From Candidatus Omnitrophota bacterium (lineage in GTDB: Bacteria > Omnitrophota > Gorgyraeia > Zapsychrales > JANLHA01), in the NCBI GenBank assembly GCA_963662715.1, contig OY759724.1, positions 332,670-396,669 of the forward strand: a DNA stretch of 64,000 bases, written 5' to 3'. Position numbers and translations under genes: made by a program. Shown here piece by piece: positions 4,217 to 22,559 of the stretch (its first letter is position 1; each line of letters opens with the position of its first letter). The notes below the pieces were generated by a model. The model was not told the DNA's origin, did not search any database, and saw only the letters and a list, made by a program, of their open reading frames with translations.

Positions 4217-4276
4217 CTAGTCTTCGGTGACGCAGAGTTTTTCAACCACTTCTTTAACAGTGAGGTAGTTACGCAT
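4217..4276 (-). pseudogene. Remnant of an AlpA/excisionase-type HTH gene: 19 codons, then a stop
   Basis: The reverse strand reads ATG CGT AAC TAC CTC ACT GTT AAA GAA GTG GTT GAA AAA CTC TGC GTC ACC GAA GAC TAG, giving MRNYLTVKEVVEKLCVTED*. This is the typical start of phage/ICE excisionase-type HTH proteins (M..LLTVKEVAELLGVS), truncated. The surrounding 3892..5244 has no intact ORF. Confidence 0.25.
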
Positions 4277-5235
4277 GTCTTACATTGAGTTGACCTCGTT
4301 TTTTTGACAAATTTATCAAATTACTATTTATTCCTATTAAATTTTATTGTATGCTCGTTACTCTTATAAAGTCAATGGAATTCAAGTACTATATTGTTTT
4401 ATCTCTTCAAATTCCTGCATGAATTCTCTGAACCGTGCCAGTTGCAGACGTTCTTCATCTAGTCGTACTATGCAGTGAGTTTGCGTAGCGATAAGAATCT
4501 AAGGCTGACTGGATCATTCTTATTGCTTTTAAAAGAATCTTTAATCTGTTCGGGGAGAGCTAGTGTTCCGAGAATTCTTGCTATGCATGACTAGTCTTCT
4601 CCAGTGTAACCGCAAGTTCTCTAACGACGCTGTTTATGCCGTGTGCTTCTTTAATCCTCACGTAATATTCTGTTTTCTCAAGGGAAAACTATTCTAGGAG
4701 TCTTATGTGGGTTTGATACATATTTCAGACTCTTTTTTGATTGTATCAATGTGGCCTAAGTCTTCAGAGGGGGGCAGAGACGACAACACTACTTATGATT
4801 TTTATTAACGATGTAAAAAAAAATTCAACCCAATAGGTGCGTGACTGTGTGAAGAAACTTTTTTTGAGGTGCTGGATGAATTCAATCATATCTGATGGAG
4901 AAAGGAGTATCTTCCCTCCATCAGAAAATTGCTTTCCGTTTTGCGAAAAAACGACTTGTGTTACACAAGTACGCTGGTTGCAAAACGGGCACAACTGGGG
5001 TTAATCACTTCAGTAGAAACCGCACAGTTCTGAGCCATAATTACATGCTCTTTAACTTTCCTTAACATCTTAAAATTTACAAAATCACGGGAGGGAATCT
5101 ATTTCTATTCCACCACATTTCCACCACATAAAATCGATTCAAATTGAAAAAACGCGAATGTCATGGCTGACCATGGCTTGCAGTAACTTGTAATGTAAAT
5201 CATTGATTTATATAGAGAAATGATATTTTTGGCAC

Positions 5236-5264
5236 AAAATAATGGGGTATCTTGCGATACCCCA
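5236..5264 (-). terminator. Rho-independent terminator of ssrA
   Basis: Immediately after the tmRNA 3' end the minus strand reads GGGGTATC-GCAA-GATACCCC followed by ATTATTTTG. Confidence 0.5.
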
Positions 5265-5274
5265 AAACATAAAG

Positions 5275-5664
5275 TGGAGGTGCGGGGAATCGAACCCCGG
5301 TCCTTCAGCTGCTTTCCGTAAGCCTCTACATGCTTAGTCTGCCGTTTACAATCACCTGAAAATCTCCGGCAAACAGGATATCCTCAGGCTATCCTTCTTA
5401 AGTTTCGCCGTGGCCCCGAAGGCCCTGGCCACAGCTAGCCTGCTGAATGTCCTCTTAACAGCCCACAGGCCTGACGGTTAAAAGGGCCTCTCTTTTTTAT
5501 TAAGCGAGGACTGGTTCGCCAGCAAAAATCGGTTCTACGATTTCGTTGGCTTTAGCGAGAATAGATTCGCCATTTGTGTGTGCCCGGATGATTAACGAGG
5601 CCAACCAGGCATCCTCGGCATGCCACTTACAGTCTCTCAACTGAAGTCGAGACCAATCACCCCC
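5275..5664 (-). ncRNA. ssrA: tmRNA (transfer-messenger RNA, SsrA)
   Basis: The reverse complement starts GGGGGTGATTGGTCTCGAC and ends ...GGACCGGGGTTCGATTCCCCGCACCTCCA. That gives a 7-bp acceptor stem with a G3:U70 pair, a T-arm GGTTCGATTCC and discriminator A. The internal tag reading frame is ...GCC AAC GAA ATC GTA GAA CCG ATT TTT GCT GGC GAA CCA GTC CTC GCT TAA TAA. smpB lies immediately upstream on the same strand. Confidence 0.9.
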
Positions 5665-5693
5665 AAATCATGAACAATTCGAAAGTGTCTTTT

Positions 5694-5721
5694 ATTATAC
5701 AACAAAATATTTTTGAAACAA
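5694..5721 (-). promoter_or_regulatory. Putative sigma70-like ssrA promoter (-35 TTGTTT, 16-nt spacer, -10 TATAAT)
   Basis: The minus strand reads TTGTTTcaaaaatattttgttgTATAAT about 30 nt upstream of the mature tmRNA 5' end. tmRNA is processed from a precursor, so the longer distance is acceptable. Confidence 0.35.
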
Positions 5722-5760
5722 AATATTTGCTGACTCCCCTAATGTCATCCCTTCTTTTCA

Positions 5761-6222
5761 TCAGGTCTTACGCTTGACCACCTTTAACGACTGCCGCAAG
5801 GCCCGGTCAATGTCCCGCTTTTTCATGGCTTCCCTTTTATCATAAAGCCTTTTTCCGGTCCCTAAAGCCAGTTCCACCTTGACCAGGCCGCGGTTATTCA
5901 TATAAATTTTCGTCGGCACCAGGACCTTGCCCCGCTCTATCACCATAGAAGAAATTTTCTTTATCTCCCGCTTGTGCATCAACAGCCTTCTGGCGCGGTC
6001 AGGCTCTTCGTTCATATAGCTTGCTTCTTTATAAGGGTTGATATGCAGGCTGTAAAGGATCACTTCCCCGTTTTCGATCTTCGCAAAACTGTCTTTGAAG
6101 TTCACAAAACCCGCACGGACAGACTTCACTTCGCCCCCCTTCAACTCAATCCCGCATTCCCATGTCTGGGACAGGAAATAGTTATGATAAGCTTTTTTAT
6201 TTGTCGCCACAGGTTTTGCCAT
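5761..6222 (-). CDS. smpB: SsrA-binding protein SmpB
   Basis: 153 aa with strong similarity to SmpB (MAKPV...KKAYHNY...GIELKGGEVKS...LLMHKREI). Adjacent to ssrA. Confidence 0.9.
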   Translation of the reverse strand: MAKPVATNKKAYHNYFLSQTWECGIELKGGEVKSVRAGFVNFKDSFAKIENGEVILYSLHINPYKEASYMNEEPDRARRLLMHKREIKKISSMVIERGKVLVPTKIYMNNRGLVKVELALGTGKRLYDKREAMKKRDIDRALRQSLKVVKRKT

Positions 6223-7756: not shown

Positions 7757-9190
7757 ATGGACCATACTCAAACTCAACTTCTGATCATCGGGGCCGGCCC
7801 CGGCGGATATGTCGCTGCCTTTCACGCCGCTGATTCCGGCCTGAATGTTACTTTAATTGACCGCGAAAAAAATCCCGGAGGCGTTTGCCTCTTCCGCGGC
7901 TGCATCCCTTCCAAAGCTTTACTGCATGTGGCGCGCATCCTTTCCGACGCCAGGGACGCCAAAGCGTTTGGGGTAGAATTCCGCGAACCGGATATTCATC
8001 CGGAAATTGTCCGCAAATGGAAGAACAGCGTCGTTGATAAATTGACCGGGGGGCTGGGGCAGCTGTCCCGGCAGAGAAACATCAACTTTATCCAGGGAGA
8101 AGCTGCTTTTCTTGATTCTCAAAATGTCGAAGTCAAAACAGCTGACGGCACGTTGTCTCAAATCCATTTCGACCATGCTATCATCGCGACCGGGTCTCAG
8201 CCTGTCACCCTTCCCTTTGCCCCTGAGTCGCCGCGGGTCATGGACTCCACGGCGGCTTTGGAATTAGCTGAAATCCCGCCGAGACTTCTTGTTATCGGCG
8301 GAGGATATATCGGACTGGAACTGGGGTCGGTTTATGCCGAACTGGGCAGCACGGTATCTGTCGTAGAAATGACGCCGCAGCTCCTTCCGGGAGTCGATCC
8401 GGACTTAAGCATGATCCTGAAAAAAAGGCTCCGGCTGAAATTCGAGGCCATCAAATGTCATACCCGGGTCACAGGACTGCAGGACACGGGGTCGGCCGTC
8501 GAGGTGACTTTCGAAGACGCCAAGGGGCAGACAAATTCCGATTCATACGACAAAGTCCTTATCGCCATCGGCCGCAAACCGGACGCCTCCTCCCTGCGGC
8601 TGGAAAAAACAAAAGTCCGATTAACAGACCGCGGGTTTATTCAAATCAATGCCCAGCGCCGGACAGACGACCCCGCTATTTACGCGATCGGGGATGTCGC
8701 CGGGAACCCTATGCTGGCGCATAAAGCGTCTCACGAAGCCCGGGTGGCGGTGGACGCGATCCTCGGGAAGAACACCGCTTTCTCCCCGCAGGCCATCCCG
8801 GCCGTGGTCTTTACCGATCCGGAAATTGCCTGGTGCGGCCTAACGCAAGCCCAGGTGCAGGATCAAGGCCCGGACATCAAAATTCTAAAATTCCCCTGGG
8901 CGGCTTCCGGACGGGCTGTCACGTTAAACCGCACTGACGGGTTGACAAAGATTATGACAGACGCCCGGACAGGCCGCATCCTTGGTGTGGCTCTCGTTGG
9001 GACCGGGGTCGGAGAAATGATCGCGGAAGGGGTTCTGGCTGTCGAGATGGGAGCGGTTGCCGAAGATCTTATGCTGAGCATCCATCCCCATCCGACGCTA
9101 TCGGAAACGATGATGGAAGCCGCCGAAAGTTTTTTCGGGCAGAGCATGCATATTTACAAGCCGCCCCGGAAAAAGCAGGACCTCATTTAA
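7757..9190 (+). CDS. lpdA: Dihydrolipoyl dehydrogenase (E3 component)
   Basis: 477 aa. FAD-binding GAGPGGY, the redox disulfide region CLFRGCIPSK, the NAD-binding GGGYIG and a C-terminal dimerisation domain. Confidence 0.9.
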   Translation: MDHTQTQLLIIGAGPGGYVAAFHAADSGLNVTLIDREKNPGGVCLFRGCIPSKALLHVARILSDARDAKAFGVEFREPDIHPEIVRKWKNSVVDKLTGGLGQLSRQRNINFIQGEAAFLDSQNVEVKTADGTLSQIHFDHAIIATGSQPVTLPFAPESPRVMDSTAALELAEIPPRLLVIGGGYIGLELGSVYAELGSTVSVVEMTPQLLPGVDPDLSMILKKRLRLKFEAIKCHTRVTGLQDTGSAVEVTFEDAKGQTNSDSYDKVLIAIGRKPDASSLRLEKTKVRLTDRGFIQINAQRRTDDPAIYAIGDVAGNPMLAHKASHEARVAVDAILGKNTAFSPQAIPAVVFTDPEIAWCGLTQAQVQDQGPDIKILKFPWAASGRAVTLNRTDGLTKIMTDARTGRILGVALVGTGVGEMIAEGVLAVEMGAVAEDLMLSIHPHPTLSETMMEAAESFFGQSMHIYKPPRKKQDLI

Positions 9191-10188
9191 TTTTCTTCTA
9201 TCCGGGTTAATAATTGCTTCAATTCCGGGCCGAAAATTTTTGAAAACTCGATAGAACCCAGCTGGTTCAGATGCTGGGAATTATAGAAATACTTTTCCTG
9301 CCGCGCCATTTCTGCCGAAGAGTAATCCATAAAAACAATGTCCCGGCCGTCACTCAGTTTTCTATAGATGGCTCTCACTTCATCCAAATTGACAACAAAC
9401 TCGTTGAACTGATAATAAACCGGGGCATAAACAAAAAACAGCCGGATACGTTTCTGCCGGCACAGCTGAACAAGCTCATTCAGAGCGGCCTTCCCCTCCT
9501 CGGTCATTTGCCCTTTAAGGCCTTGCGGATAAAGCCTTTTAACGGTTTTGACATCTTCCTCCTTATTCCAGTCTATGTTCACCGGGCAATAACCTTTGTA
9601 ACAGTCAACCGTATCTTCCCGGCCGGTCAACCCCTGGACCGCATCGACCGTAAAGTCATGACTTAACAGGGCAAAGCTGTATAAAGGGAAATACCTGGCT
9701 AAGATAAAATGTTTCGAAATCCCGGAAAGGGTTTGATAAATCTCTTTTTCGTTCAAATAAGGGATAAACTGTCCCGGATTATACGCCCGGGGCTTACGAA
9801 GGGTATTGCGTCCCACCACCTGAACAATAGCTTCCGGCGGGCGGTTGTATTTCAGGTAGACTTTTAACCGGGCCACCTGCAGGGCCAGGGAATTTCCCAG
9901 CAGGGCGATATTATAGACATCTTTATTCAGGTCCTCTTCCAGCAGAGAAACGTCCATGCCGGCTTGCGCCCGGGAAGCTCCAGTTATCAGGATGTCGGCA
10001 TTAATTTCTCCCCGGACAATACGGTTCCATTCCCCGAAATCGCCGCTTCTCCTCGCGTAAAACCCTTCCATCAAATAAGCCTGGACAGCCAGACTGAGGA
10101 TGACAAATATAACGGGAAAAGCGATCATGTCTCTTGCATTCTGATTCATGGCGTTAAAATTGGAAATAAATAAATTCGATCCCTTCAA
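9187..10188 (-). CDS. DltD/AlgJ-like membrane-anchored protein, the probable partner of the adjacent MBOAT acyltransferase
   Basis: 333 aa with an N-terminal TM helix and an extracytoplasmic domain. It overlaps the MBOAT gene's 3' end by 35 nt, which suggests translational coupling. An alternative start at M14 (10149) lies 4 nt after the MBOAT stop. The family assignment rests on context and weak resemblance. Confidence 0.4.
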   Translation of the reverse strand: MKGSNLFISNFNAMNQNARDMIAFPVIFVILSLAVQAYLMEGFYARRSGDFGEWNRIVRGEINADILITGASRAQAGMDVSLLEEDLNKDVYNIALLGNSLALQVARLKVYLKYNRPPEAIVQVVGRNTLRKPRAYNPGQFIPYLNEKEIYQTLSGISKHFILARYFPLYSFALLSHDFTVDAVQGLTGREDTVDCYKGYCPVNIDWNKEEDVKTVKRLYPQGLKGQMTEEGKAALNELVQLCRQKRIRLFFVYAPVYYQFNEFVVNLDEVRAIYRKLSDGRDIVFMDYSSAEMARQEKYFYNSQHLNQLGSIEFSKIFGPELKQLLTRIEEN

Positions 10189-11587
10189 ATTTCCCCAGAA
10201 AAATAATGCTGAAAAGTACCGCGTAATAAAAAATCCAGCGTGCGAACTTAGGCATCCTTAACGTCAGGTCTCTCAGCCGCCAGCGGCTCTGCAGCAAATG
10301 CACGATAATGAGCAGAGCTATCAAGGCCAAAGATACGGTAAAATCAAAAGTTTTATACGGGAAAGCGTCGTTGCCCCCCGGGCTGAACATATTTATTATA
10401 AGAGTTTTCACATCACGCAGCGACTGGGCTCTAAAAAATATCCATGAAAAAAGCACCAGGTGGTACGTGATGGCGATCCGAAGCATTTTGTACAGGGCCG
10501 GGACTCTCTCCAAATTCAGGAAAGACACCGCCCGGCGGCGCCAGCCTTCCGTCCAGACAGAAAAAAGCATATAAAATCCGTGAAGCGCCCCCCAGACAAC
10601 AAACGTCCAGTTCGCGCCGTGCCAAAGACCGCTGATAACAAAAACGAAAATAAGATTAAGGTACCACCGCTGTACCGGGACGCGGTTGCCGCCGAGAGGA
10701 ATGTACAAATAGTCCCGGAACCAGGTCGACAAAGAAATATGCCAGCGCCTCCAGAACTCGGCAATGGATACGGCAAAATAAGGGCGCCGGAAATTCTCCA
10801 TGATTTCAAAGCCCATGATCCTGGCGGCTCCGATAGCAATATCCGAATAGCCGGAGAAATCGCAATAAATTTGAAAAGCAAAAAACGTCGTGGCGATGTA
10901 AACCGTCGCGCCATGCCATTGCGCGGGATGCCCGTAAACAAAATTCACAAAAAAGGCCAAGCGGTCCGCGATGACGATCTTTTTAAAGAATCCCCATAAC
11001 ATAAGTTTCAGGCCGTCGCACATCCTGGGATAGTCGAAATCATGTTTTTTAAAAAACTGCGGCAACAAGTGGCCGGCCCGCTCAATCGGGCCTGCGACCA
11101 GCTGCGGGAAGAAAGATACGTATAAGGCAAAAACCCCTAAATGCCTTTGAGGCTCCAGTCTTTTACGGTAGACATCAATCGTATAGCTTAGCGTCTGAAA
11201 CGTATAAAAGGATATCCCTAAAGGAAGCAGGACATTCAGATGAGGGAGATACGCGGACAAACCGAGGGTCTTGAACAAGGCGTTAAAACTGGACGAGAAG
11301 AAATTAAAATATTTAAAAACCGCCAGAATGCCCAAATTCGTCATAAGGCTCAGGACAAGAAACATCCGGCGTTTCACAGGGTTTTCCGTCCGCCCCATCT
11401 GCCATCCGGCAGTGTAATCCACCAAGGTTGAAACCACCAGTAAAAGAACATACGGGATGTTCCAGAACATATAAAACACGTAACTCGCCAGAAGAAGCCA
11501 GGCCCAGCGGAAACGGAAAGGGAAAAGGAAATAAAGGGTAACAACGACAGGAAAAAATATTAAAAATTCTAGAGAATTAAAAAGCAT
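10154..11587 (-). CDS. MBOAT-family membrane-bound O-acyltransferase (AlgI/DltB/PatA-like)
   Basis: 477 aa, polytopic. Conserved MBOAT histidine region WRRWHISLSTWFRDYLYIPLGGNR and the C-terminal ...GLWHGANW motif. Confidence 0.8.
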   Translation of the reverse strand: MLFNSLEFLIFFPVVVTLYFLFPFRFRWAWLLLASYVFYMFWNIPYVLLLVVSTLVDYTAGWQMGRTENPVKRRMFLVLSLMTNLGILAVFKYFNFFSSSFNALFKTLGLSAYLPHLNVLLPLGISFYTFQTLSYTIDVYRKRLEPQRHLGVFALYVSFFPQLVAGPIERAGHLLPQFFKKHDFDYPRMCDGLKLMLWGFFKKIVIADRLAFFVNFVYGHPAQWHGATVYIATTFFAFQIYCDFSGYSDIAIGAARIMGFEIMENFRRPYFAVSIAEFWRRWHISLSTWFRDYLYIPLGGNRVPVQRWYLNLIFVFVISGLWHGANWTFVVWGALHGFYMLFSVWTEGWRRRAVSFLNLERVPALYKMLRIAITYHLVLFSWIFFRAQSLRDVKTLIINMFSPGGNDAFPYKTFDFTVSLALIALLIIVHLLQSRWRLRDLTLRMPKFARWIFYYAVLFSIIFLGKFEGIEFIYFQF

Positions 11588-11755: not shown

Positions 11756-14700
11756 TTAATTATAATTCAGCATGCTGAGCTTATCATGTTCGTCATCGAA
11801 AAAGAACTGAATATCCGACTCCGCCGGTTCCTGCTGAGGCTTCCGGTCTGCGCCTTTTTCCGCCTCTGTGCCCCGGCCCCGGGTTGTCCCTCGGGCCGGA
11901 ACCGCATCCTCGGCACTCATGCCCAGCAGCATCGGCAGGTTGGGAATCGGCGTAATGTTGATAATAACCGGCAAGAACCCTTCTATATTCATATTCTGAA
12001 TCGGCTGTTGCTGAACAGGTAAAGGAACACCGCTTCCGTCCCGTCTGATCTGCAGGTTCAAAAGCGCCGGATTAAGATCGATACCACCAAGCGGCGAAGA
12101 AGTCGCCGGCGCGGCTCCTATATTCGCTGCCAGCCGTTGAACGGTATTGATAACCTGGCCCACGCCGCCCTTACTGTTCTTTTCTGTTCTCATAAGTTTG
12201 CTGAGGTCACGTTTCGCCTGTTTGGTCGAGATGCTGCCATCAGCGACAGAGACCAGAAGCTCCCTTGTCCCTTTATTTTTCAGATTAAATTTCGTCATAG
12301 CCTTGTCAACGGCTTCGATCGGAGAAGAAACGGCCGCGCTGGCGAGTTCAATGACTTCCGCTGTTGCCAACAGGTTTTGCACGGCAGATTCTTCATTTAC
12401 CCTGTCAAGGACTTCCGTAATGTCCCGGTCGACCCAATCTCCAGGTAATGTCACAGCAACATCAATCCCGGCCTCCTGCCATTGAAAAGCGACACCGGTT
12501 TCATCGGCCCTTACCCCGTCATAACGCAAAACCAAGTTTGCGCCTTCGACAAAAAAGTAGGTCCTCTTCCAAGGGAGGTCCTCCCCTTCATCAAATTCCG
12601 GCAAATTGGTTTTTACGGTCAGCTGTTCAGACAGCTTAAAGGGCACGGACAAATCGGTCAAACGTGTCTCCAGCTGACTCATGGTGTTGATCACAGATTC
12701 TAAGCGCGTCGCCTCTTCGATCGGGATGTCCCGGGCTAATTCAATCTGCAGCTCTTTGGCCGGGAGAATCTCTCCGACCTGCCGTAGAACATCCGCGACC
12801 TGATTCCGGACTGTCTCTAGCCTGGCGCGGTCCTTTTCCACCTCTATTTCAACCTGGGCCAAAAGCTGTTCGGCCTGGGTTAACAAGTCAGCCACCTTTT
12901 CTTTTTCATTCGCGGCAAACTGAATAGGAGAAGAGGCCCCCAACGACATGAAGTCAATTAACGGGAACCGTTCCGGACGCCCGGCATCAAGCATGAGCAG
13001 CTGCAAATCCCGGTTCTCATCCTCCGTCACCCGGACAGCCTCATTAAACACCCGGGCGGCCATAACTAATATTCTCTCAGCCAGAGCCCTGTCAACACCG
13101 TCAATTTCCATTAATTTATTTTCAGCTTCTGTTCTCCGGTCAGCCTTCTCTAATTCTATCGCCTCCTGGATGGCCTGGTAAGCATCGGCCGTCACAAGGT
13201 TATAGCCTAAGGCCAAACTGGCCGGAAGCAGCCTGAACATGGCCTCTCCGACAGGGTAAGCTCCGTCCATCAGCTTGATGCTGAGGATATGGGCGGCTTT
13301 GGCCAAAGGAGGATTCTGTTCAATAAAGACGATCTGATTGGCCAATAAAGCCCGCATAGCGGCATGAATCCAGCCGTTCTGGGCCCCGTTGACCTGCTTA
13401 TCAATATCCACGATTTGATTAATAAGCTGTACGTTCTCTTCGGCTAACCCAATCGTTGAGAGTATCGGGGAAGACACGCCTAAATTCGTATAATCCAAGA
13501 ACTCGATATACTTCGCCTCAACCCCGGTAAGAGCTACGGCAAAAGGCCCGTCTGTAGGAGTCCAGGTTAACAAGACATCCTGAAGAGCAAAAGGATTAGC
13601 ATACTCAAAATCCCCTTGTATTTCCCGGGATACCAGCACAGTTGCATCATCCGGAGCCCTTAATTCCAGACGTGTTGTACTATCAGGCTCATGGACATTA
13701 ACATACAAAACATTTCCGTCATGCTTGAATAAGATCCTTCTTGAAGCGCCCTGATTATTGTCAAGGTTCCGTCCCTCGCTGACCAGAGGCTCTCCCAGCA
13801 CGGCAAAATTCCCCAGCTGGCTTGCTGCTTCATAATTCTCAACTTCGTTATATTTCGTTCTTGCCCGCATCACGGCCGCCTGCCATTCCCCTGCCGAAGC
13901 AGCCGTCTCCAAGGCCTCGGCCAGGACAAACGGACTCTCTGACATCCAGTCGCCGGAAAGGGTTAATTCTTTTATATCCGTCTTGTCGTCCCTGGCGCGT
14001 AAAACAAGCCGGGTCGTCCCTTGTGTATGGTCCCGGTGAGCATAAAGGATACGTCCGTCATGCCCGAACAGGGCTCTCAAAGACGGGCCGTCATTTTCTG
14101 CCCAATTCTGTCCTTCCCGGACCATTGTTTTAACCGGAGAAGCAGCCAACAACGACTCTCCGATATAGGGGTCATGCTGAGCATGCAGGTCTCTGCCTGC
14201 CTCCATATTAGGGATTCCATTCTCGTCTGTCCTCAGCAAGGCAGCTCCCAGACCGGTTCCAGGCCCGATATAAAGAATGCGGGCATTGTCGATTCTTTGC
14301 CCGGACAACTCATATAATGCTGTGGCCCCGGCAAAAGCATCGTTCATCCACACCACGTTATAAGGTTCTCCTAATAAACCCTGCAACGTGCTGGCAGGGT
14401 TCACACCGAAAAATTGCGGGCGGTTGGGCCAGCTTTCTTGAGCGATAGCGCCATCAGCCTCTTTTTTCCCCGGATGCCCGACCCCGATTTCAAAGGAAAC
14501 CTCGTATTGTTCAGTCTCTAATTCATTCCGTAAAGTATTAATAAGAGGAAGCAGTGCGCTGTAATATTCTTCCGGTTGAACTTGTGCGATATCACGGTCT
14601 AATACAAACCGCTGCATCCCTCCTACAAATTGCACAAAATTTCCGTTTTCATCAAACTGGATCCCCTGCATCTTGGCAGAGGTCCCGCCCACATCAACAC

Positions 14701-17700
14701 CGATCACAACCTTGTTCCGTCTAAGGTCTTGATCAACCAGCAATGCTGCTCCTAATATCCCTGCTTCTTCCGCAACCATTTGATTTTCAGCTGAAAGGAT
14801 CGGCAGTATCGTAACGCCGGTTCCCAACACGCTTCGGATCTTCTGTTCCAGGATATTGCGGATAAAAGGATTATTGCTAATAGCCCCGCCGATCTCAATA
14901 ACGTTAATGCCTTTCCACTCATCTTCGATGGCTCTTAAAGCTTCTCCATCCTGACTCCGCAAGGCCCCTTCCATCAGCAGAGACGCAAACTGCGCATAAA
15001 CACCCCCGACAAATTCCAGCACCTGAGTGATAACATCTGCGGCCTCGGAATCGGGATAAGTTTGCAAGACCCAGCCCATAAACCTGGTATCCAGATTCCC
15101 CTGATATTCGGCCAACAGGTCCGTAAACAGGTCCTTGTTTTCCTTAAGGAGCTGTTCATTCACCTGGGCGAACATCCGGTTAATCGCCGTAGTCGAAGAA
15201 AGGTTCTCCGTTGTTAATCTTTCTGTTGTAAAAGACACCAGCACTTCACGCCCGTCCCGCAGGGAAATGGCTACAGGGATGGCTTCTAACGGCGAAGAAC
15301 CCAAGTTATTTTTTAAAGCGACAATATCTTTCACGGAATAGGGCTTCATGAAAATATCCGTAAAAAGGCCGCCTTTTAAACCTGTCGCGGCATCAACCTG
15401 CTGAAGCTCCTCCAGATTCGGGGCAAAACCCGTCGTGAGGATGATGGGGAGATCTCTTACCGCCCGGATCTCTCTGGCAAGTTGTTCGCCGGTCATCTGA
15501 GGCATGACGAAATCTGTCACCACCAGATCAATATCCGGATTCTCGTTAAACACTCTCAAGCCTTCTTCTCCGTTATCGGCGCGAATGACTTCCGCTTCGC
15601 CGAAAACCGCACCGAAGAGCTGCGCAGCCACATCTCCGACCATCTCTTCATCGTCCACAACAAGAATTTTCTTGATGGGCGTCGAAACCACGGCAGCAGT
15701 GGTGGTGGTAATTTTATCTTTTAAAGCGGTTAACTGCTCAAACTCATAAGGTTTATCCAGGACTTCATCAAATAATCCGCCCTTTAAACCGGTCGCTTCA
15801 TCCACGGCCGTTAATGTGTCGTCTATCGTCCCTGACAACAAGACAACCGGGACATTGTTTCCTGCGGCCCTCAACTCACGGGTGAACTGATCTCCGGTCA
15901 TAACAGGCATTTGCAAATCCGTTACAACCAGGTCAAAATCCCCGGACTCCCGGAAGGTCTGAAGGGCTTCCTGCCCGTTGTCTGCGGTAACGACTTCCAC
16001 GTCCCCGAACACGTCTTTCAAATCTTCGCTCACCAGGAGCAAAATGGATTTTGAATCATCGACCAGGAGGATCTTCTGAATCGGAGAAGCCACCGGGGCC
16101 GCTCTCAAGGAAGACTCTACCTGCGAGATAAACGCCTGCAAGTCTTCTGAATATTTGTTCGCCTGAATGATTCCCGACAATATTTCACTGACTTCTGTCT
16201 CTGTCGCCTGCGCGGCGGCAACATAAGCCCCTTCTATCTCAAAGAATACTTCGGCCACGATTTCCCCTGTCCTCCCATCATATAATTTATGAGAAATCTG
16301 GTTGGCCCCAGCAACCTCTTCCCCGATAACCATTACAGGGTTATTATCCCGCATAACCAATATGGTACGGGCAAAGGATTGCGGATGATAAGTCCGGATG
16401 ATACCCGTCTGCCCCTGGGCCATGGTCAACAATTCCAGCCCCGTTGTATCGATGACCGGGGATGAAGCAGGCGGCGTTGTCCTTACGAGCTCTAAGGCTC
16501 TAGCCGCATCCTCTTCCGTAATTCCAATCAAATCATTACGGAAAGAAACCCCGGCGCTTCTTTCTGCATCTTCCAAGCTCCCTGCCGTAAAATTGAACTT
16601 CCGCAGATCCTCCAGCCGAAAAGTAAAATACTGCGATATTTGGGCCGCTGTCGGAACCCGCCCTTGACTTGCTTCTATATCCATCCATTGCCGAAACAAC
16701 TCAATATCATCCCTATCCACCTCATATTCGCCCGTTACCATTCTCTCTATGGCAGCCGGCAACCCCGTCATCCATCCCCGATATCTCGGATGACTCAAGA
16801 TATACTTCTCTACCCCTACGGGCAGAAACGTTATGTCTTTTTCCGGGTCGGAGGAAAAATGCTCCCGGATATTCGTGGAGGATGTCCCGAACAAATTAAT
16901 ATGTCCTATCGGCCTTATAAATCCTCTTGCCATGTATTCCTTCATTTGAGCCACTTCCACCGGCATAGGCAGACTTTCAAATAATTCCCTGAAGTTGAAG
17001 GCCAACATCATGTCGATATTATTTCTTTGAAGATGGTCGGCCAACTCCTCTTTCATCCGGTCCATCTTTAAGACCGTATCCGGCTGAGGATGATCCCCGT
17101 CCATTTTAGGAGTCCTGTACCCATCGGTATCCATGTCGCTTGACGGGGCATAAACATGCATATGGTCCCCGCCGACCGCTGTATAGACCCACGTTGTCTT
17201 TCCTGTTCTGCCCCCGTTGATTTCAATCAGTTTCTTGTACTTCGTTTCGCCATCCGCCTCTGAACCGTTCAAAACTTTTGACAAGACAAGAAGTCCGTCA
17301 AAAAGATCCACCCATTCCTGCGCCATTTCATCGCGCTCCTCAAAAGTCGGGTTCAGCCCCTTCTTCTGCTTGCGGTAATCAAAGGCATGGTTGACGACAC
17401 CAACCTGGGAAATTTTCAATTGCGCCATGGCCCGCAAAACCGGTTCGAACTGGCCGAAATGCAGAGGATTCAACGCTGAGGCATAAACACCGACGATCGT
17501 ATCCCCGGTATCTGTTTCCTGCCCCGTAAACTCCGCGTCCTGTTCACTCCAGCGCACCTGCTGCAATTGCATCTCCCCGTTCATCATATGGACGCCGATT
17601 TCCCATAAAGATTCCTTCACCTTTCGTGTCCATTCACCGGCCAATTGCTCGTTTCGACCCGGTTCCTGACGCAGACTCCGCCTCACAAGATTATCAAAGA

Positions 17701-20476
17701 CCTGTTCCACGTCCACCCGGATCTCTTTGTTCACGTTCGGAAAAATGCTTTTGGCATATTCATATTCCTTAACCCGGTTCTCTTCATGCGTCCCTTGATT
17801 CGCGGTGTAGACCAAAGAACGCTCAAGCATCCGGTAAGGGTTCCCTTTTTCCTCTATCATGCGCCTGAACCCGCTTTCCATAACGATCTTCTTCCGTCCC
17901 GCCTCGACAACAAGGGCCATACCAAACGTGACATCTGTCCCGCTGTCGATTTCCTCTACCGTGGTAATATCGATCTGGCGTCTTTCTTTATTTAAAAAGT
18001 ACGTACGGATTTCACTCAGTTCTGCCAACTGAACTTCCCGGCGTTCCTGCCCGGCCTGTTCATAAGCCCATACCTGATTCAGAACTTCTCCCATACCCAT
18101 CCGCTGATTGTAGCTGTTGCCGAACATCACTCCGTCCCGGTACGGGATCCCGTCCGGGTTGATTCCGTCCTCTAATTCAACTAAAATATCTCTCCAATCC
18201 CGTTTCGTTTCATCACCGGCCCTGGCTTTCATCATCATAATCGGCGTAATACCATACCCGAAAAACTCATGGCTCGTTGTGCCTTCAGCTTCAGAATAAA
18301 CGCTCACCAACTGAAACAGGTCATCAAAATTTATTGTTCTGGTCCTTCCTGTCTCCGTCTCCACAACATTATCCTCTTTGGCGTGGATAAAATTCGCCAA
18401 TGAATCTTCCCGGATACTCCGCGGCGCCCCCAGCGGTGAGGAGACGGCCGTCTGATCAAGCAGCATGAGCTCGTCTTCGTCAAGCTGCTGCAGCAGGGCC
18501 GTTTCCGCATCTGACAGGGCCTGGGAAACCTCCGGCCCCTTTTGAAGAAGCTGTGTGGCGGCCTCTATTAAAACGCCCAACTGTTCCGGCACCTTGGCGA
18601 AAGTGTCGTCCGGCAACGCGTCGCTTCTTATCAAATGCAGCAAACTTAAAATCTTCCGCTCTCTTCGCAGTTCACTCCTGGCCACAGCCCGGTTTTCATC
18701 AGCCAGAGCTGACCGGTCTCCGTAATTTTGGGCCGCTTTCTCCAACCCGGCGATATCCTCTTGGTATAACTGCATAATTTCATCGGGAATGGTAACCGCA
18801 CCCCCACGCGCCCTCACAATAGTTTCCAAAGCTTCAAACACGTTCATCGGCGCTACGCCTGTCATCAACTCTTCCAAACGCCCTTCTTCCTGCGGCGCTA
18901 AGGTTGATTTAAGAATATCGGACATAATAAGGGCGAGACGCTTTGTTCTGGTTCTGGTAAAGGTCTTGGAAGCATATTCCAGCAAACGCCGGCTCTCCTC
19001 GGTCAGGTTCTGGAAAGATTCTATTTTCACCAGGTCATTAAGAGATACTCCCGCCTGAATCTTTTCGGCAATATCCGCACTCACGCGGCCGATCAGGGCC
19101 AACCCGTCGTCAACGGTGATCCGCTGGGCCGCGGCTGATGTGACATACCCCAGATACTGGCGGGCTAACTGCGTGTTCTGTTCGATCACATCGGCAAAAT
19201 TCGATATAGGGGAAGCCACAATAGCGCTCTGCGCCGACAATGTTTCAGAAGGGTTCTCCGCCAGGATAGCCGCCACCTGCACCACCGGGCTTGAAACACT
19301 CATCCCGGCATCGATCCTTGCTCTTAAAGGAGACGACGGCGGGACATTACGCAGTTCGACGGACGTGATCGAGCTGGAGACCTCGGAAGCATCAACCCCG
19401 CCGGAAAAATATTTTCGCGGGATGACTTTTTTCGTCGACATATCATAATCTTCCCGGATATAGTCATAAACGCCTTTTTTAAATGCCGCCAGGTACTGTT
19501 CATAAATTTTCTGTTTAATTTCCTTGTCGTTAACGTCCACGCCTTTCACCTTGCCTTTGTTGACATAGACTTGTCCAAGGAGACTCGCTCTTAAATTCTC
19601 TTTATACCAGGTCGCTAAAATCAGGGAATTGAAAATCTGCCGCAGATTAGCAAAATTCTTGCCCTCATTGACTTCCTTTTCTATTTCCGGCAACAAAACT
19701 TCCCGGACAACATCCGAAGAAACCTTGCTAAGAGTCTTTACATAATCCTGGGTGATCTTTGTGGTTCCTAATTTTTTATTATCCAGGTTCCTTTCCAAAG
19801 CTAAGTAATCCTCTTCCAGCATAACTTTCAGATGACTGTCAACCACAAAAGCGCTGCCGTTATGCTCAACAACCAAGGCGTCTTCCGGGATAATCCATAT
19901 TTTGTTGAACGTATTGATCGGAATATTTGTCGTACCATATTCTTTTTGTGCGCGGTCATAGACTCTTTGCCAAAATTCCTGGCCGAGATCATCTTCCGGA
20001 TAGATCATCGAGGCCGTTAACTGCTTCAGCATATAGTCCTGAGCCAGGAGGTCGCGGCCCATTTCTGTCATGCTGAAACCTTCGGGAACAATACGGTCGC
20101 TTTCATAAGGAGAAAGGTTAACCCACAAATCTTTTTCCGGGATCGTCAGGGCGGCGAGAAAATATTTAATGAGTTTGCTGGATTCTGCTTCGAGTTCTTC
20201 TCCGGTCAATTGGTCGTTTCCGGAATCGATAATAAAATCGAATTTTAAAGGATTTTCCGGGTCGATCTTCACCCCCTTCAAACAGGCCGGGGCATAAATA
20301 TCGCTTTTCATAACCATGGCCCCGGGCATCGGCAGATCCAAAACCGTCGGGGCTGGATCAGCCGCGGATACCGGCGCGGGTGGAATGATGAGGCTTATCA
20401 GAAATGAATAACTGATAAACGAGACTAAAATACGATACGACCAATGATCACGACTATTCCGGAAATAGTTAAACAT
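11756..20476 (-). CDS. Giant (2906 aa) multidomain protein. It has an N-terminal signal peptide or anchor, a TagD-like cytidylyltransferase module, an ASKHA/ROK-like kinase module, two receiver domains, an internal duplication and recurrent SSP junction motifs.
   Basis: Uninterrupted 8.7-kb ORF with a strong RBS (AGGAGGG, 11 nt upstream of the ATG at 20476). N-terminus: MFNYFRNSRDHW-[ILVSFISYSFLISLII]-PPAPVSA|ADP. aa ~993-1050 GVYASALNPLHFGQF...VGVVNHAFDYRKQKKG aligns with TagD TYGTFDLLHWGH...VVAISTDEFNLQKQKK. aa ~1860-2100 carries IGGAISN...AGILGAALL, then VVIGVDVGGTSAK and ILYIGPGTGLGAALL (ROK/ASKHA motifs). aa 1466-1588 and 1601-1723 are two REC domains with the DD, D, T and K residues all present. 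Confidence 0.85.
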   Translation of the reverse strand: MFNYFRNSRDHWSYRILVSFISYSFLISLIIPPAPVSAADPAPTVLDLPMPGAMVMKSDIYAPACLKGVKIDPENPLKFDFIIDSGNDQLTGEELEAESSKLIKYFLAALTIPEKDLWVNLSPYESDRIVPEGFSMTEMGRDLLAQDYMLKQLTASMIYPEDDLGQEFWQRVYDRAQKEYGTTNIPINTFNKIWIIPEDALVVEHNGSAFVVDSHLKVMLEEDYLALERNLDNKKLGTTKITQDYVKTLSKVSSDVVREVLLPEIEKEVNEGKNFANLRQIFNSLILATWYKENLRASLLGQVYVNKGKVKGVDVNDKEIKQKIYEQYLAAFKKGVYDYIREDYDMSTKKVIPRKYFSGGVDASEVSSSITSVELRNVPPSSPLRARIDAGMSVSSPVVQVAAILAENPSETLSAQSAIVASPISNFADVIEQNTQLARQYLGYVTSAAAQRITVDDGLALIGRVSADIAEKIQAGVSLNDLVKIESFQNLTEESRRLLEYASKTFTRTRTKRLALIMSDILKSTLAPQEEGRLEELMTGVAPMNVFEALETIVRARGGAVTIPDEIMQLYQEDIAGLEKAAQNYGDRSALADENRAVARSELRRERKILSLLHLIRSDALPDDTFAKVPEQLGVLIEAATQLLQKGPEVSQALSDAETALLQQLDEDELMLLDQTAVSSPLGAPRSIREDSLANFIHAKEDNVVETETGRTRTINFDDLFQLVSVYSEAEGTTSHEFFGYGITPIMMMKARAGDETKRDWRDILVELEDGINPDGIPYRDGVMFGNSYNQRMGMGEVLNQVWAYEQAGQERREVQLAELSEIRTYFLNKERRQIDITTVEEIDSGTDVTFGMALVVEAGRKKIVMESGFRRMIEEKGNPYRMLERSLVYTANQGTHEENRVKEYEYAKSIFPNVNKEIRVDVEQVFDNLVRRSLRQEPGRNEQLAGEWTRKVKESLWEIGVHMMNGEMQLQQVRWSEQDAEFTGQETDTGDTIVGVYASALNPLHFGQFEPVLRAMAQLKISQVGVVNHAFDYRKQKKGLNPTFEERDEMAQEWVDLFDGLLVLSKVLNGSEADGETKYKKLIEINGGRTGKTTWVYTAVGGDHMHVYAPSSDMDTDGYRTPKMDGDHPQPDTVLKMDRMKEELADHLQRNNIDMMLAFNFRELFESLPMPVEVAQMKEYMARGFIRPIGHINLFGTSSTNIREHFSSDPEKDITFLPVGVEKYILSHPRYRGWMTGLPAAIERMVTGEYEVDRDDIELFRQWMDIEASQGRVPTAAQISQYFTFRLEDLRKFNFTAGSLEDAERSAGVSFRNDLIGITEEDAARALELVRTTPPASSPVIDTTGLELLTMAQGQTGIIRTYHPQSFARTILVMRDNNPVMVIGEEVAGANQISHKLYDGRTGEIVAEVFFEIEGAYVAAAQATETEVSEILSGIIQANKYSEDLQAFISQVESSLRAAPVASPIQKILLVDDSKSILLLVSEDLKDVFGDVEVVTADNGQEALQTFRESGDFDLVVTDLQMPVMTGDQFTRELRAAGNNVPVVLLSGTIDDTLTAVDEATGLKGGLFDEVLDKPYEFEQLTALKDKITTTTAAVVSTPIKKILVVDDEEMVGDVAAQLFGAVFGEAEVIRADNGEEGLRVFNENPDIDLVVTDFVMPQMTGEQLAREIRAVRDLPIILTTGFAPNLEELQQVDAATGLKGGLFTDIFMKPYSVKDIVALKNNLGSSPLEAIPVAISLRDGREVLVSFTTERLTTENLSSTTAINRMFAQVNEQLLKENKDLFTDLLAEYQGNLDTRFMGWVLQTYPDSEAADVITQVLEFVGGVYAQFASLLMEGALRSQDGEALRAIEDEWKGINVIEIGGAISNNPFIRNILEQKIRSVLGTGVTILPILSAENQMVAEEAGILGAALLVDQDLRRNKVVIGVDVGGTSAKMQGIQFDENGNFVQFVGGMQRFVLDRDIAQVQPEEYYSALLPLINTLRNELETEQYEVSFEIGVGHPGKKEADGAIAQESWPNRPQFFGVNPASTLQGLLGEPYNVVWMNDAFAGATALYELSGQRIDNARILYIGPGTGLGAALLRTDENGIPNMEAGRDLHAQHDPYIGESLLAASPVKTMVREGQNWAENDGPSLRALFGHDGRILYAHRDHTQGTTRLVLRARDDKTDIKELTLSGDWMSESPFVLAEALETAASAGEWQAAVMRARTKYNEVENYEAASQLGNFAVLGEPLVSEGRNLDNNQGASRRILFKHDGNVLYVNVHEPDSTTRLELRAPDDATVLVSREIQGDFEYANPFALQDVLLTWTPTDGPFAVALTGVEAKYIEFLDYTNLGVSSPILSTIGLAEENVQLINQIVDIDKQVNGAQNGWIHAAMRALLANQIVFIEQNPPLAKAAHILSIKLMDGAYPVGEAMFRLLPASLALGYNLVTADAYQAIQEAIELEKADRRTEAENKLMEIDGVDRALAERILVMAARVFNEAVRVTEDENRDLQLLMLDAGRPERFPLIDFMSLGASSPIQFAANEKEKVADLLTQAEQLLAQVEIEVEKDRARLETVRNQVADVLRQVGEILPAKELQIELARDIPIEEATRLESVINTMSQLETRLTDLSVPFKLSEQLTVKTNLPEFDEGEDLPWKRTYFFVEGANLVLRYDGVRADETGVAFQWQEAGIDVAVTLPGDWVDRDITEVLDRVNEESAVQNLLATAEVIELASAAVSSPIEAVDKAMTKFNLKNKGTRELLVSVADGSISTKQAKRDLSKLMRTEKNSKGGVGQVINTVQRLAANIGAAPATSSPLGGIDLNPALLNLQIRRDGSGVPLPVQQQPIQNMNIEGFLPVIINITPIPNLPMLLGMSAEDAVPARGTTRGRGTEAEKGADRKPQQEPAESDIQFFFDDEHDKLSMLNYN

Positions 20477-20701: not shown

Positions 20702-21175
20702 TTACTGTGATTCCGGAGAAATATCCGTAATGTGAAATTCCGCTGTAAGCCCTTCCTCTAACTGATTTTGAGACGACTGTCCGGCATTAACCTCCAAAAC
20801 ATACAGGGCTTTTTGCGCAGGCGGGTAAACAGGACAGGGCGACGACTGGCACGGGGGGACGTTTTCTTCAATATGAACAATCCTCCGGTTATGATCCAGC
20901 CAGATGATATCTAGAGGAATATACGTATCTTTCATCCAGAAAGCATAGGCTCTTCGTTCCGGAAAAATAAAAAGCATCCCTTTCCCCGGCTCCAGGCTGG
21001 TGCGGAATTGCAGGCCTTGCGTCCTTTGTTCCTGAGTTAAAGCTAACTCGACTTCATAACACGTATCTGAGAAGCATACACTGTTGTTTTTGCTGACTTT
21101 TTTCTGACAGGAAGCAATAAAAAACAGCAGAAAAAAGGCCAGGCAGAAAAATCTGATATTTTTAGGCATCATCAC
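20702..21175 (-). CDS. DUF192-domain lipoprotein
   Basis: 157 aa. Lipoprotein-type signal FFIASC. The core ...QGLQFRTSLEPGKGMLFIF...AFWMKDTYIPLDIIWLD matches the DUF192 (COG1430) signature. Confidence 0.7.
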   Translation of the reverse strand: MMMPKNIRFFCLAFFLLFFIASCQKKVSKNNSVCFSDTCYEVELALTQEQRTQGLQFRTSLEPGKGMLFIFPERRAYAFWMKDTYIPLDIIWLDHNRRIVHIEENVPPCQSSPCPVYPPAQKALYVLEVNAGQSSQNQLEEGLTAEFHITDISPESQ

Positions 21176-21957
21176 AATTCATTTCCCGTGAGGTTCAAAT
21201 AATCCTTGAAGCGGAGCGCCCCGGTGATTTCCTTATGAACAATCCCCACGCGCTCGGAAAGATACGGATGCGTACGGAAATAATTGATCTGCTGGGCAGG
21301 TGCCCGGTCCTGTTCTTTTTTGAGGATATCCAGCATCGTTATCATTTCCTCGGCATCATAGCCTGCCTTCTTCATATATTTCACGGCCAGCCGGTCGGCT
21401 TCAAATTCATCACGCCGGGAATAGGCGAAAAAAACACTCGTATAGACGGCATTAACGCCCACAATGGCATCCGCATCCTGCGAGGCGATGGCCAAAGCCT
21501 GCAGAATGGTATACCCGTAAGCGCTCTGCATCCGTTTGATGCCGTGGCGGGCCGTAATATGGCCTAACTCATGCGCAATAACCCCGGCCAATTGATCATC
21601 ATTCTCCACCTTATCCATAAGGCCTTTAAAAACATAAATATACCCTCCGGGCAGACTCACGGCATTGATTTTATCCTCATCAATCACGCGGATCGTGTAA
21701 ACCACGTCTTTCCGGTCGACAACCGGAATTAAGCTCTCAAGAATTTTCTGAACCCGCGCATTGACATCGATGTCCTCGTTAATTTTATAGTTGCGTTCAA
21801 TTTGCCGGGCCACAGAATCCCCGATACGCACTTCTTTCTCCGTCCCGTAAATCAGCCGTTCCTCGCGCCCGGTCGCTAGATTATATTCCGAGGAACAGCC
21901 CCACAGGTTCAACAGGGACATCAGCATGACCAGCAAACAACCATGTCGCCTACTCAT
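21172..21957 (-). CDS. M48-family zinc metalloprotease (HtpX/BepA-like), lipoprotein. Start moved to M26 of the track ORF.
   Basis: HELGHITARH (HExxH) motif and an E-x-x-A-D-like downstream region. The ATG at 21957..21955 overlaps the maf stop as ATGA and yields an N-terminus MSRRHGCLLVMLMSLLNLWGCSS with a lipobox. The track ORF's 25-codon upstream extension (to 22032) runs inside maf. Confidence 0.75.
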   Translation of the reverse strand: MSRRHGCLLVMLMSLLNLWGCSSEYNLATGREERLIYGTEKEVRIGDSVARQIERNYKINEDIDVNARVQKILESLIPVVDRKDVVYTIRVIDEDKINAVSLPGGYIYVFKGLMDKVENDDQLAGVIAHELGHITARHGIKRMQSAYGYTILQALAIASQDADAIVGVNAVYTSVFFAYSRRDEFEADRLAVKYMKKAGYDAEEMITMLDILKKEQDRAPAQQINYFRTHPYLSERVGIVHKEITGALRFKDYLNLTGNEL

Positions 21958-22559
21958 AATACCGTTACTCCGCATTTCTTGAGCATGCCCCGTAACATGG
22001 CCAAAGGCAACCCGATGACGTTTGTGTAGCATCCTTCAACACGGTTAATAAACAGCGCGCCCCGGCCCTCAATATTATACCCGCCGGCTTTATCCAGAGG
22101 AAATATCTTACGATGATACCGCCGGATTTCCTGATCTGACAACGGCTGCATATAGACTTTGGTTTTTTCATAGCCGACAAATTCCCGGTTCCCGGCAACA
22201 TCAATGACAGCCACACCCGTGTAGACCCAGTGCGGATGCCGGCACAAGAATCTCAGGACACTTTCAGCTTCTTTAAGATTTCCGGGTTTGCCGATAAGAC
22301 CTTTATGCCGTTGGTAAACAACCGTATCCGCCGCAATGATACAGCCTTTCCGAAACCGGGCGGCCACATCTCTCGCTTTTAAACAGGCGTTGTGTTTAAC
22401 AAGCCTGCTGCAGGAATTTCTCACCTGATGGTCCTCCTGCACGGCGCTGGGACACACGGTAAACTTCAGCCCCAGTTGACGGAGAAGGGCTTTACGGCGT
22501 TGAGACGCCGAAGCTAGAATAATGGATGGCATTGTCGGCATGATGAAAAGATAGCCCAA
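21954..22559 (-). CDS. maf: Maf-like nucleoside-triphosphate pyrophosphatase (septum formation protein Maf)
   Basis: 201 aa. IILASASQRRKALLRQLGL...IIAADTVV... is typical of Maf. Confidence 0.85.
   Translation of the reverse strand: MGYLFIMPTMPSIILASASQRRKALLRQLGLKFTVCPSAVQEDHQVRNSCSRLVKHNACLKARDVAARFRKGCIIAADTVVYQRHKGLIGKPGNLKEAESVLRFLCRHPHWVYTGVAVIDVAGNREFVGYEKTKVYMQPLSDQEIRRYHRKIFPLDKAGGYNIEGRGALFINRVEGCYTNVIGLPLAMLRGMLKKCGVTVL

Follow-up and report, generated by a model that had tools for sequence, protein, structure and literature searches.

The Omnitrophota are widespread, uncultivated and probably predatory or parasitic nanobacteria, whose very large proteins are a recognised puzzle. 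Multi-enzyme architectures have been described for them in two studies, both of which suspect cleavage. In one, a class of multi-enzyme giant proteins of at least 10,000 amino acids (aa) is defined (bioRxiv 10.64898/2026.06.07.730766), and in the other the cleavage of Omnitrophota giant proteins is proposed, the cleavage points themselves being stated as unknown (West-Roberts et al. 2023, 10.1101/2023.11.21.568195). Short recurring sites between modules, such as EGSL↓GED and LEGL↓SGT, are where MARTX and clostridial toxins are cleaved (PMC2900308). The window analysed here, 64,000 nucleotides of a Candidatus Omnitrophota bacterium (assembly GCA_963662715.1, contig OY759724.1, positions 332,670 to 396,669), holds on its minus strand a giant open reading frame (ORF) whose product repeats the motif SSP[VIL], or a close variant of it, between its modules. 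The enrichment of this motif, its boundary position, the movement of modules at it, its equivalence to a second motif, the specificity of each motif for a genome and their restriction to one protein family are regarded as established, and a lineage-specific factor, most likely a protease, is tentatively proposed as the reader of the signal.

An earlier note on this DNA, made from the letters alone, had listed 13 copies of the motif in the giant protein and had taken them for conserved inter-module junctions, with polyprotein processing sites, O-glycosylation or phosphorylation sequons and docking motifs as candidate functions. Translation of the minus strand of 11756-20476 returned all 13 sites at the residues listed, nine of them SSP[VIL], three ASP[IV] and one STPI, together spanning window positions 12089-19336. 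The pattern [AS][ST]P[ILV] is found 13 times in 2906 aa against 0.46 expected from composition (Poisson P 4.8e-15), and the comparison with shuffled sequence that the note had suggested gave a mean of 0.44 and a maximum of 4 in 2000 shuffles, while all the remaining window ORFs of at least 150 aa, pooled, contain a single match. The note had also made a preceding [AVG] part of the motif; this residue is indeed enriched in the window protein (11 observed against 0.11 expected), but it is a local habit, since position -1 across the family shows only a weak preference for small residues (0.8 bit). For comparison, 78 family loci from species-representative genomes were collected and their family ORFs extracted, and for every one of the 13 sites L001/L002, L009 or P0123 shows the motif at the corresponding place in the alignment. 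Neither outcome that the note would have taken as a refutation, a frequency no higher than chance or a lack of conservation in orthologues, was therefore observed. The linkers around the first three sites are modelled as flexible by AlphaFold2 (AF2), with a predicted local distance difference test (pLDDT) of 37-62. The gene and its sites are as follows.

11756-20476, minus strand: giant ORF with all 13 motif sites, 2906 aa, one Cys
19325-19336, minus strand: site 1, SSPL, aa 381-384; conserved in L001/L002; low-pLDDT linker
19283-19294, minus strand: site 2, SSPV, aa 395-398; conserved in L001/L002 and P0123
19205-19216, minus strand: site 3, ASPI, aa 421-424; ASPI in P0123, ASPV in L001/L002
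18431-18442, minus strand: site 4, SSPL, aa 679-682, opening a 659-aa module; aligns with L009 SSPV 1026 and L001 SSPI 554
16454-16465, minus strand: site 5, SSPV, aa 1338-1341; aligns with L009 SSPV 1680
16079-16090, minus strand: site 6, ASPI, aa 1463-1466, 6 residues before strand beta1 of the first receiver (REC) domain; SSPV/SSPI in L001/L002
15674-15685, minus strand: site 7, STPI, aa 1598-1601, 6 residues before strand beta1 of the second REC domain; SSPL/SSPI in L001/L002, SSPV in P0123, DNAM in L015
15287-15298, minus strand: site 8, SSPL, aa 1727-1730; aligns with P0123 SSPI 2143
14132-14143, minus strand: site 9, ASPV, aa 2112-2115; aligns with P0123 SSPL 2530
13463-13474, minus strand: site 10, SSPI, aa 2335-2338; homology to L001 1571-1842 begins at L001 SSPV 1574
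12923-12934, minus strand: site 11, SSPI, aa 2515-2518; aligns with L001 SSPL 1754, L002 TAPI and P0123 SSPL
12317-12328, minus strand: site 12, SSPI, aa 2717-2720; aligns with L001 SSPV 1860
12089-12100, minus strand: site 13, SSPL, aa 2793-2796, directly before the C-terminal element

As the note had observed, the last site abuts a GGIDLN sequence, which opens a conserved C-terminal element, and the combination SSPL-GGI[DN]LN recurs in L001, L002, P0123 and several representatives. The codons used vary across the 13 sites, and the constraint therefore lies on the protein and not on the DNA.

The motif is also enriched in the rest of the family. In the cargo regions of the 78 loci its core is S-S-P-[VIL], with 62 copies observed against 3.8 expected; SSP followed by any residue other than V, I or L stays at chance, and the flanks carry almost no information. 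Two other sets gave the same picture, with 24 copies against 0.74 expected in 120 database homologues and 103 against 6.0 in 137 independent representatives. In 543 non-family proteins encoded in the neighbourhood (180,890 aa), on the other hand, SSP[VIL] is at chance level (5 against 6.1 expected), as is the second motif described below, and the few motif-rich "neighbours" are further family members cut off by the edge of a locus.

Modules are gained, lost and moved at these sites. What separates L001 and L002, with 11 and 10 sites in 2042 and 2049 aa, from the window protein is the presence or absence of whole modules, the motif sites being the limits of the aligned blocks. The module at aa 679-1337 is 66% identical to L009 1026-1684, with SSP at both ends in both proteins and a different position in the chain, and 53% identical to L065 369-1058, while the module at aa 1727-2111 is 68% identical to P0123 2143-2529 and is flanked by the motif on both sides. 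Likewise, the phosphoglucose isomerase (PGI) module of L026 (782-1368) matches L055 1071-1652 at a different chain position. Four modules of the window protein have some assignment.

16466-18442, minus strand: module aa 679-1337, 659 aa, weak nucleotidyltransferase (NMNAT-like) signal (NCBIfam TIGR00482, E 0.008)
15725-16072, minus strand: REC domain 1, aa 1469-1584 (Pfam PF00072, E 4.9e-29)
15317-15670, minus strand: REC domain 2, aa ~1603-1720 (second Pfam stretch; NCBIfam matches over 1601-1725)
14144-15298, minus strand: module aa 1727-2111, sugar-kinase-like (ROK/glucokinase), weakly supported

The REC domains are the only two that a whole-protein Pfam scan recognises in the window protein (PF00072, 101 bits against a cut-off of 30.2), and the acidic pocket DD, the phospho-acceptor D in VVTDLQMP, the LLSG and the DKP can all be read from the sequence. 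Both start six residues after a site, in agreement with the note, which had placed sites directly before each of them; in the whole set, the junction motif lies 6-8 residues upstream of every stringently defined REC start. Beyond REC, Pfam and NCBIfam scans of each inter-motif segment gave only weak kinase and nucleotidyltransferase hints. The kinase-like module matches the NCBIfam polyphosphate-glucose phosphotransferase (E 3.7e-4) and the Pfam Glucokinase (E 0.005), a comparison with the PDB yielding glucokinases at E ~0.2 and nothing significant; the NMNAT-like module had no match among PDB sequences. In the relatives, complete enzymes are contained within single inter-motif segments (Pfam match and module in residues of each protein):

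Phosphoglucomutase (PGM), L009: Pfam 486-898, module 470-1025
Phosphoglucose isomerase, L026 (E 2.6e-189): Pfam 840-1330, module 782-1368
Phosphoglycerate kinase (PGK), L043: Pfam 1110-1523, module 1096-1565
SNF2 helicase, L013: Pfam 1482-1960, module 1017-2482
Malate synthase, L019: Pfam 861-1089, module 627-1280
Isocitrate lyase (ICL), L019: Pfam 2282-2473, module 2114-3078
Class-I aldolase, L019: Pfam 3247-3546, module 3180-3589

UDPGP too falls within one segment in the Pfam scans of relatives, and 19 further members add enolase, triosephosphate isomerase (TIM), transaldolase, pyruvate phosphate dikinase (PPDK), enoyl-CoA hydratase, acyl-AMP ligase and short-chain dehydrogenase/reductase (SDR), together with histidine-kinase ATPase, HTH and GNAT domains. 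The distance between motifs has a median of 209 aa (interquartile range 125-436). Compared across the family in this way, SSP[VIL] evidently marks the boundaries between complete enzyme-sized modules, and the interpretation of the earlier note appears to be partly right, its junction claim being strongly supported. As a separate observation, a putative internal duplication can be seen by eye in the module at aa 2112-2334 (13475-14143, minus strand), between "LRALFGHDGRILYAHRDHTQGTTRLVLRARDDKTDIKELTLSGDW" and "RRILFKHDGNVLYVNVHEPDSTTRLELRAPDDATVLVSREIQGDF", with a possible third copy near aa 2640-2690, also by eye; a BLAST self-search gave the identity match alone.

An unbiased 4-mer scan of the cargo revealed a second family of words, formed by DAAM (38 against 0.97 expected), DSAM, DRAM, DQAM, AMLS and AMLA, whose logo is D-x-A-M-[LVIMT]-[AGSTV]. 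In total, the 78 loci contain 166 copies of D-x-A-M. The motif reaches 14 copies in the richest protein of this set and 16-17 in a truncated member recognised among the neighbours, and its carriers include L006, L019, L057, L063, L067, L027 and L015. It is placed as SSP is, after the N-domain, before REC domains and before the C-terminal element, so that junctions such as "DSAM-LAKKKKILIVDD" and "DNAM-VTRRVLVVDD" can be set beside "ASPI-QKILLVDD". Moreover, homologous modules carry either of the two: a UDPGP-like module is enclosed by two copies of SSPV in L043 and by two of DRAM in L015, and a PGM module is enclosed by SSP on either side in L009 and, in L057, by DxAM at 2949 and 3485. The two motifs are almost never present in one protein; among the 120 database homologues, 16 carry SSP alone, 36 DxAM alone and none both; for the representatives Fisher's test gave P 0.008. 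Counted per genome, the SSP/DxAM numbers fall into two groups, one with 14/0, 10/0, 9/0 and 6/0 and the other with 1/39, 0/24, 0/21, 0/16 and 0/11, and in a tree of the N-domain the SSP and DxAM types are interspersed. The motif type evidently follows the genome, as judged from these counts and this tree, and not the paralogue. Rarer variants include NPAML (L017, L058), [DE]xLMLG (L044), DxAVL (L059, L025, L070) and DxSM[LI], the first three being located in the linker that follows the N-domain and just ahead of the C-terminal element; in members lacking SSP and DxAM, a search for a third strong motif showed local variants alone.

The proteins sharing this code form a family with fixed ends, which in the window protein are the following.

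20363-20476, minus strand: predicted Sec-type signal peptide, aa 1-38, read from the sequence, with a basic n-region, a hydrophobic helix and PAPVSA↓AD
19397-20362, minus strand: conserved N-domain, aa 39-360, ending in YFSGG; marker of the family
11921-12088, minus strand: conserved C-terminal element, aa 2797-2852, 56 aa, GGIDLNP..L.LQI.RDG.GVPLP..QQPI..M.IEGFLPVIINITPI.NLP.LLG.

The family architecture is evidently, by sequence comparison, a predicted Sec-type signal peptide and N-domain followed by variable cargo and the C-terminal element. The signal peptide forms a helix at residues 12-30 in the AF2 model, residue A38 hardly varies, and AxA↓Q sites are seen in homologues. In L022 and L023, around residues 383-420, the first junction (DGAML) is followed by a second hydrophobic stretch resembling a signal peptide or a transmembrane segment, "SWRAKG(L/V)GIA(A/S)AAL...". 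A database search with the N-domain gave 1571 matches at 50-86% identity, nearly all of them labelled Candidatus Omnitrophota or Omnitrophica, and the family comprises at least 8062 clusters (HMMER, 1.84 billion representatives, E <=1e-3; clusters at 50% identity), the members ranging from 420 to 5312 aa among 150 listed. The N-domain has no matching model in Pfam or NCBIfam, and its AF2 model (pLDDT 72, predicted template modelling score, pTM, 0.66) showed no significant fold match in the PDB or BFVD. Its invariant polar residues include S122, D147, K151, E268, N270, R279, Q280 and K292, with no invariant His or Cys. The C-terminal element, whose family consensus is GGI[DN]LNP..L.LQIKRDG.GVPLP..QQPI..M.I.GF.PVIINITP..NLP.LLG, stands at the end of most complete members, and its pattern was matched in 82 of the 138 representatives; it is covered by neither Pfam nor NCBIfam, and alone it gave no compact fold in AF2 (pTM 0.20). 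In term searches of the Omnitrophota giant-protein studies, and in a wider literature search, neither the family nor its junction motif was found described.

Cysteine has almost disappeared from these proteins. Of 140,295 aa in the family, 98 are Cys (0.07%), and in the 543 neighbours the share is 1.16%, which makes the depletion about 16-fold. The PGI, PGK, PGM, malate synthase, aldolase and SNF2 modules are entirely Cys-free, and two Cys remain in the ICL module. Together with the predicted signal peptide, this depletion suggests export in an unfolded state. The result is a paradox, an exported-looking chain whose cargo is nevertheless made up of cytoplasmic enzymes that depend on ATP and phosphate, together with receiver domains that look intact.

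The most satisfactory explanation of these data, held tentatively and with somewhat less than even confidence, is that SSP[VIL] signals the junctions to a factor specific to the lineage, most probably a protease, in a polyprotein whose modules are released. The motif would be a protein-level punctuation between the autonomous modules of an exported multi-enzyme protein, which in the window would be two REC domains, a sugar-kinase-like and a nucleotidyltransferase-like module and several unknowns, and would introduce each module 2-60 residues before its first structured element. SSP[VIL] would be one lineage-specific version of the junction code, and D-x-A-M-[LVIM]-[AGST] another. A short motif with information-free flanks, found in flexible linkers on non-homologous modules and replaced as a set, has the features expected of a short linear motif whose reading factor varies from lineage to lineage, and since one version is used across all the paralogues of a genome, this factor would be encoded elsewhere in that genome. 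An endopeptidase would cut at the junctions and free the modules as separate proteins. Given the near-absence of Cys, the chain would cross at least one membrane unfolded, so that the processing would take place outside the cytoplasm. Among the mechanisms proposed in the earlier note, polyprotein processing would rank first, because the modules are complete enzymes of stand-alone size, several of them normally oligomerise, and the MARTX proteins offer a precedent; a docking motif would also be compatible with the data. Proteolytic cleavage at the junctions is suggested by the sequences and by this analogy. In a fuller version, cysteine-free polyproteins combining complete enzymes of central metabolism with signalling domains would be exported and cut outside the cytoplasm at a lineage-specific code (SSP[VIL], DxAML, NPAML and others) by a co-evolving protease, so that a functional set of enzymes would reach the periplasm, the surface of the cell or the inside of a host or prey cell; as a whole, this version is doubtful.

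Several results weigh against a protease. No gene neighbour, proteases included, is conserved across the 78 loci. In 19 members 40 Pfam families were matched, and the 25 commonest of these include no peptidase. The window protein has no peptidase match in Pfam, Peptidase C80 included, and a single Cys in its whole length. The N-domain was considered as a reader in cis and rejected, its model finding no protease-like fold in the two structure databases and none of its alignment columns segregating with the motif type (best normalised mutual information 0.41). Moreover, a proline beside the scissile bond is unfavourable for most endopeptidases. P0127 carries SSPI and DGAMM in tandem, six residues apart in one linker, and does so twice (residues 419-433 and 985-999), in the composite junction PPQTSSPI(S/P)PEE(F/S)SDGAMMSEE; two different signals fit this arrangement better than two interchangeable ones. 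In addition, neither motif reaches two copies in 79 of the 137 representatives, and the signal would therefore be non-obligatory, or further variants have escaped recognition. The claim that the motif is a property of the genome is based on bins of metagenome-assembled genomes and on a neighbour-joining tree of one domain, and the pattern may also reflect a single ancient switch followed by inheritance, which would still require a concerted change at many junctions. As a side observation, the window protein reads "SSPIEAVDKAMT" at aa 2717-2728, similar to the P0127 composite.

The main rival explanation, somewhat unlikely in our judgement, is that the junction signal is read without being cut, either by a chaperone or translocon component, which would take the unfolded chain through export one module at a time, or as a docking site that would arrange the tethered enzymes into a metabolon at the surface or a membrane. 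This rival is served equally well by the sequence evidence that a signal is read, and also by the failure to find a protease, in cis by Pfam scans or in the 78 neighbourhoods. The conserved N- and C-terminal caps suggest a chain handled as one unit, the extreme depletion of Cys fits unfolded translocation, and a cargo from connected pathways (glucokinase-like, PGM, UDPGP, PGI, aldolase, TIM, PGK, enolase) would suit substrate channelling. However, PGI, class-I aldolase and ICL are normally dimers or tetramers, and oligomeric enzymes would be awkward within a chain of two to five thousand residues; the 78 loci identified no partner either, and four residues with information-free flanks make a small docking surface.

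It is improbable that the motif is instead a scar of module shuffling, a linker that travels with the modules, is homogenised by gene conversion and is read by nothing. It is true that modules take their flanking motifs with them when they move between paralogues, and in CdiA polymorphic toxins the short VENN motif at the module junction is thought to aid recombination. The serine codons could hint at common descent, since 21 of 22 at the window sites are TCN, against 64% gene-wide, but in other members the excess is slight (76% against 65%, P 0.03). The codons also vary from site to site, and homologous recombination cannot be driven by 12 degenerate bases. Not even the copies share their flanks, the same four residues stand on non-homologous modules of at least 10 ancient paralogues per genome, and elsewhere a different motif occupies the same place on homologous modules, a pattern that needs selection and not drift. 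Varied codons, and a TCN bias strong in the window gene only, likewise led to the rejection of a repeat or recombination site acting at the DNA level. Internal translation starts, an idea raised by the invariant Met of DxAM, were rejected for the SSP type, because TTA, GTC, GTT and CTT, besides possible start codons, encode the hydrophobic position of SSP sites.

A sequon for O-glycosylation or phosphorylation on Ser of an exported protein, among the functions proposed in the note, is very improbable. Two invariant Ser followed by Pro, in an accessible linker of a protein with a predicted signal peptide, would be a suitable substrate, and bacterial general O-glycosylation does use short sequons in exported proteins, such as D-(S/T)-(A/I/L/V/M/T) in Bacteroidota. 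However, none of the invariant positions is Ser or Thr in D-x-A-M-[LVIM]-[AGST], the equivalent motif of other genomes, which makes either modification unlikely; a sequon would be expected in any exposed loop and not strictly at module boundaries, and no glycosyltransferase or kinase is linked to the family in the 78 neighbourhoods. Finally, an artefact of chance or composition in a long Ser- and Pro-containing protein can be dismissed, given P ~5e-15, a shuffle maximum of 4, SSP without V, I or L at chance, replication in two sets and neighbours at chance.

If the protease reading is correct, the motif would be the missing list of cleavage points for the giant proteins of this phylum, and a lineage-specific boundary code of four residues makes the question of their cleavage testable. 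Even as a mere linker convention, it offers a practical rule by which these proteins can be parsed into modules. The analysis also brings to light a family of at least 8062 clusters without a curated model, in which PGI, PGK, enolase and aldolase lie nearly Cys-free behind a signal peptide, and the signal peptide and the loss of Cys raise the question of where these enzymes work.

The window protein is identical to the representative-library protein P0121, and its gene lies in an ordinary diderm chromosome, the window encoding BamA, LptFG, LpxC-FabZ, tRNA synthetases, DnaB and ClpB-like proteins. The gene is flanked upstream (20702-22559, minus strand) by DUF192, M48 peptidase and Maf genes, and downstream (9187-11587, minus strand) by an MBOAT acyltransferase and an unknown 333-aa ORF. 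The order PRT-Maf-M48-DUF192-[gene]-MBOAT-unknown is kept in L001 and L002, with a pyridine-nucleotide oxidoreductase also recovered in L001, and by this shared gene order both loci are evidently syntenic orthologues of the window gene. The M48, DUF192 and MBOAT neighbours recur only there and at no other family locus, and no functional link is therefore drawn from them. Elsewhere in the window, positions 1-6000 have a G+C content of 0.37-0.41, against ~0.5 across the remainder, and this stretch, which contains a gene for a 679-aa SIR2-like and TPR protein (1852-3891, minus strand), may be an acquired or defence-related island. LpxC and FabZ/FabA-like domains are fused in a single 471-aa ORF (51803-53218, minus strand).

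Among known systems, the polymorphic toxins provide one comparison. The Rhs junction motif PxxxxDPxGL, like VENN, demarcates exchangeable modules in a large secreted protein. However, VENN and Rhs proteins have one junction each, with conserved DNA around it and a downstream immunity gene, whereas the proteins described here have up to 17 junctions, varied codons and no conserved downstream gene in the 78 loci. Autotransporter passengers are, like the proteins described here, scarce in cysteine, and the cargo of autotransporters and of the type IX system with its C-terminal domain (CTD) shares with this family the Sec signal peptide and the conserved C-terminal element; here, in contrast, the C-terminal element has ~56 aa, no Pfam match and no predicted fold of its own, and neither a beta-barrel nor a type IX CTD was detected. 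Viral polyproteins and gingipain precursors resemble the family in that one ORF codes for several complete proteins with a short motif at every boundary. They differ from it in that here no cognate protease is found in the ORF or adjacent to it, and that the genes reside in a cellular chromosome, with dozens of shuffled paralogues per genome.

The likeness to MARTX proteins includes very large secreted proteins with conserved ends, interchangeable middle modules and short recurring junctions (PMC2900308; PMC5218395), and the variant D-x-A-M-L-[AGS] resembles the MARTX pattern of cutting between Leu and a small residue. The differences are that no C80 cysteine protease domain was found here, that a Sec signal peptide takes the place of type-1 secretion, that the cargo consists of housekeeping enzymes and regulators and not of known toxins, and that the junction code is another one and switches between lineages. 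RTX/hemolysin-type repeats gave no Pfam match at E <=1 in the whole window protein or in its N- and C-terminal pieces.

With the Omnitrophota giant proteins, as characterised in the two studies cited above, the family shares the phylum, the many enzyme Pfams per chain, including REC and ROK-kinase, and the common occurrence of signal peptides. The tiling of enzymes along the chain is seen in the relatives of the window protein as well (PGI, PGK, PGM, UDPGP, enolase, TIM, aldolase, ICL, malate synthase, PPDK). Those giants, however, have at least 10,000 aa or ORFs above 20 kb, compared with 2906 aa for the window protein and at most 5312 aa for the listed members, and term searches of both texts gave no description of the N-domain, the C-terminal element or the junction motif. 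The family stands outside the MARTX, polymorphic-toxin and type IX/autotransporter cargo groups, whose defining features were tested for and found to be lacking. Modular secreted proteins and polyproteins with coded junctions are a known kind of system, within which the lineage-specific code and the family that carries it appear to be undescribed.

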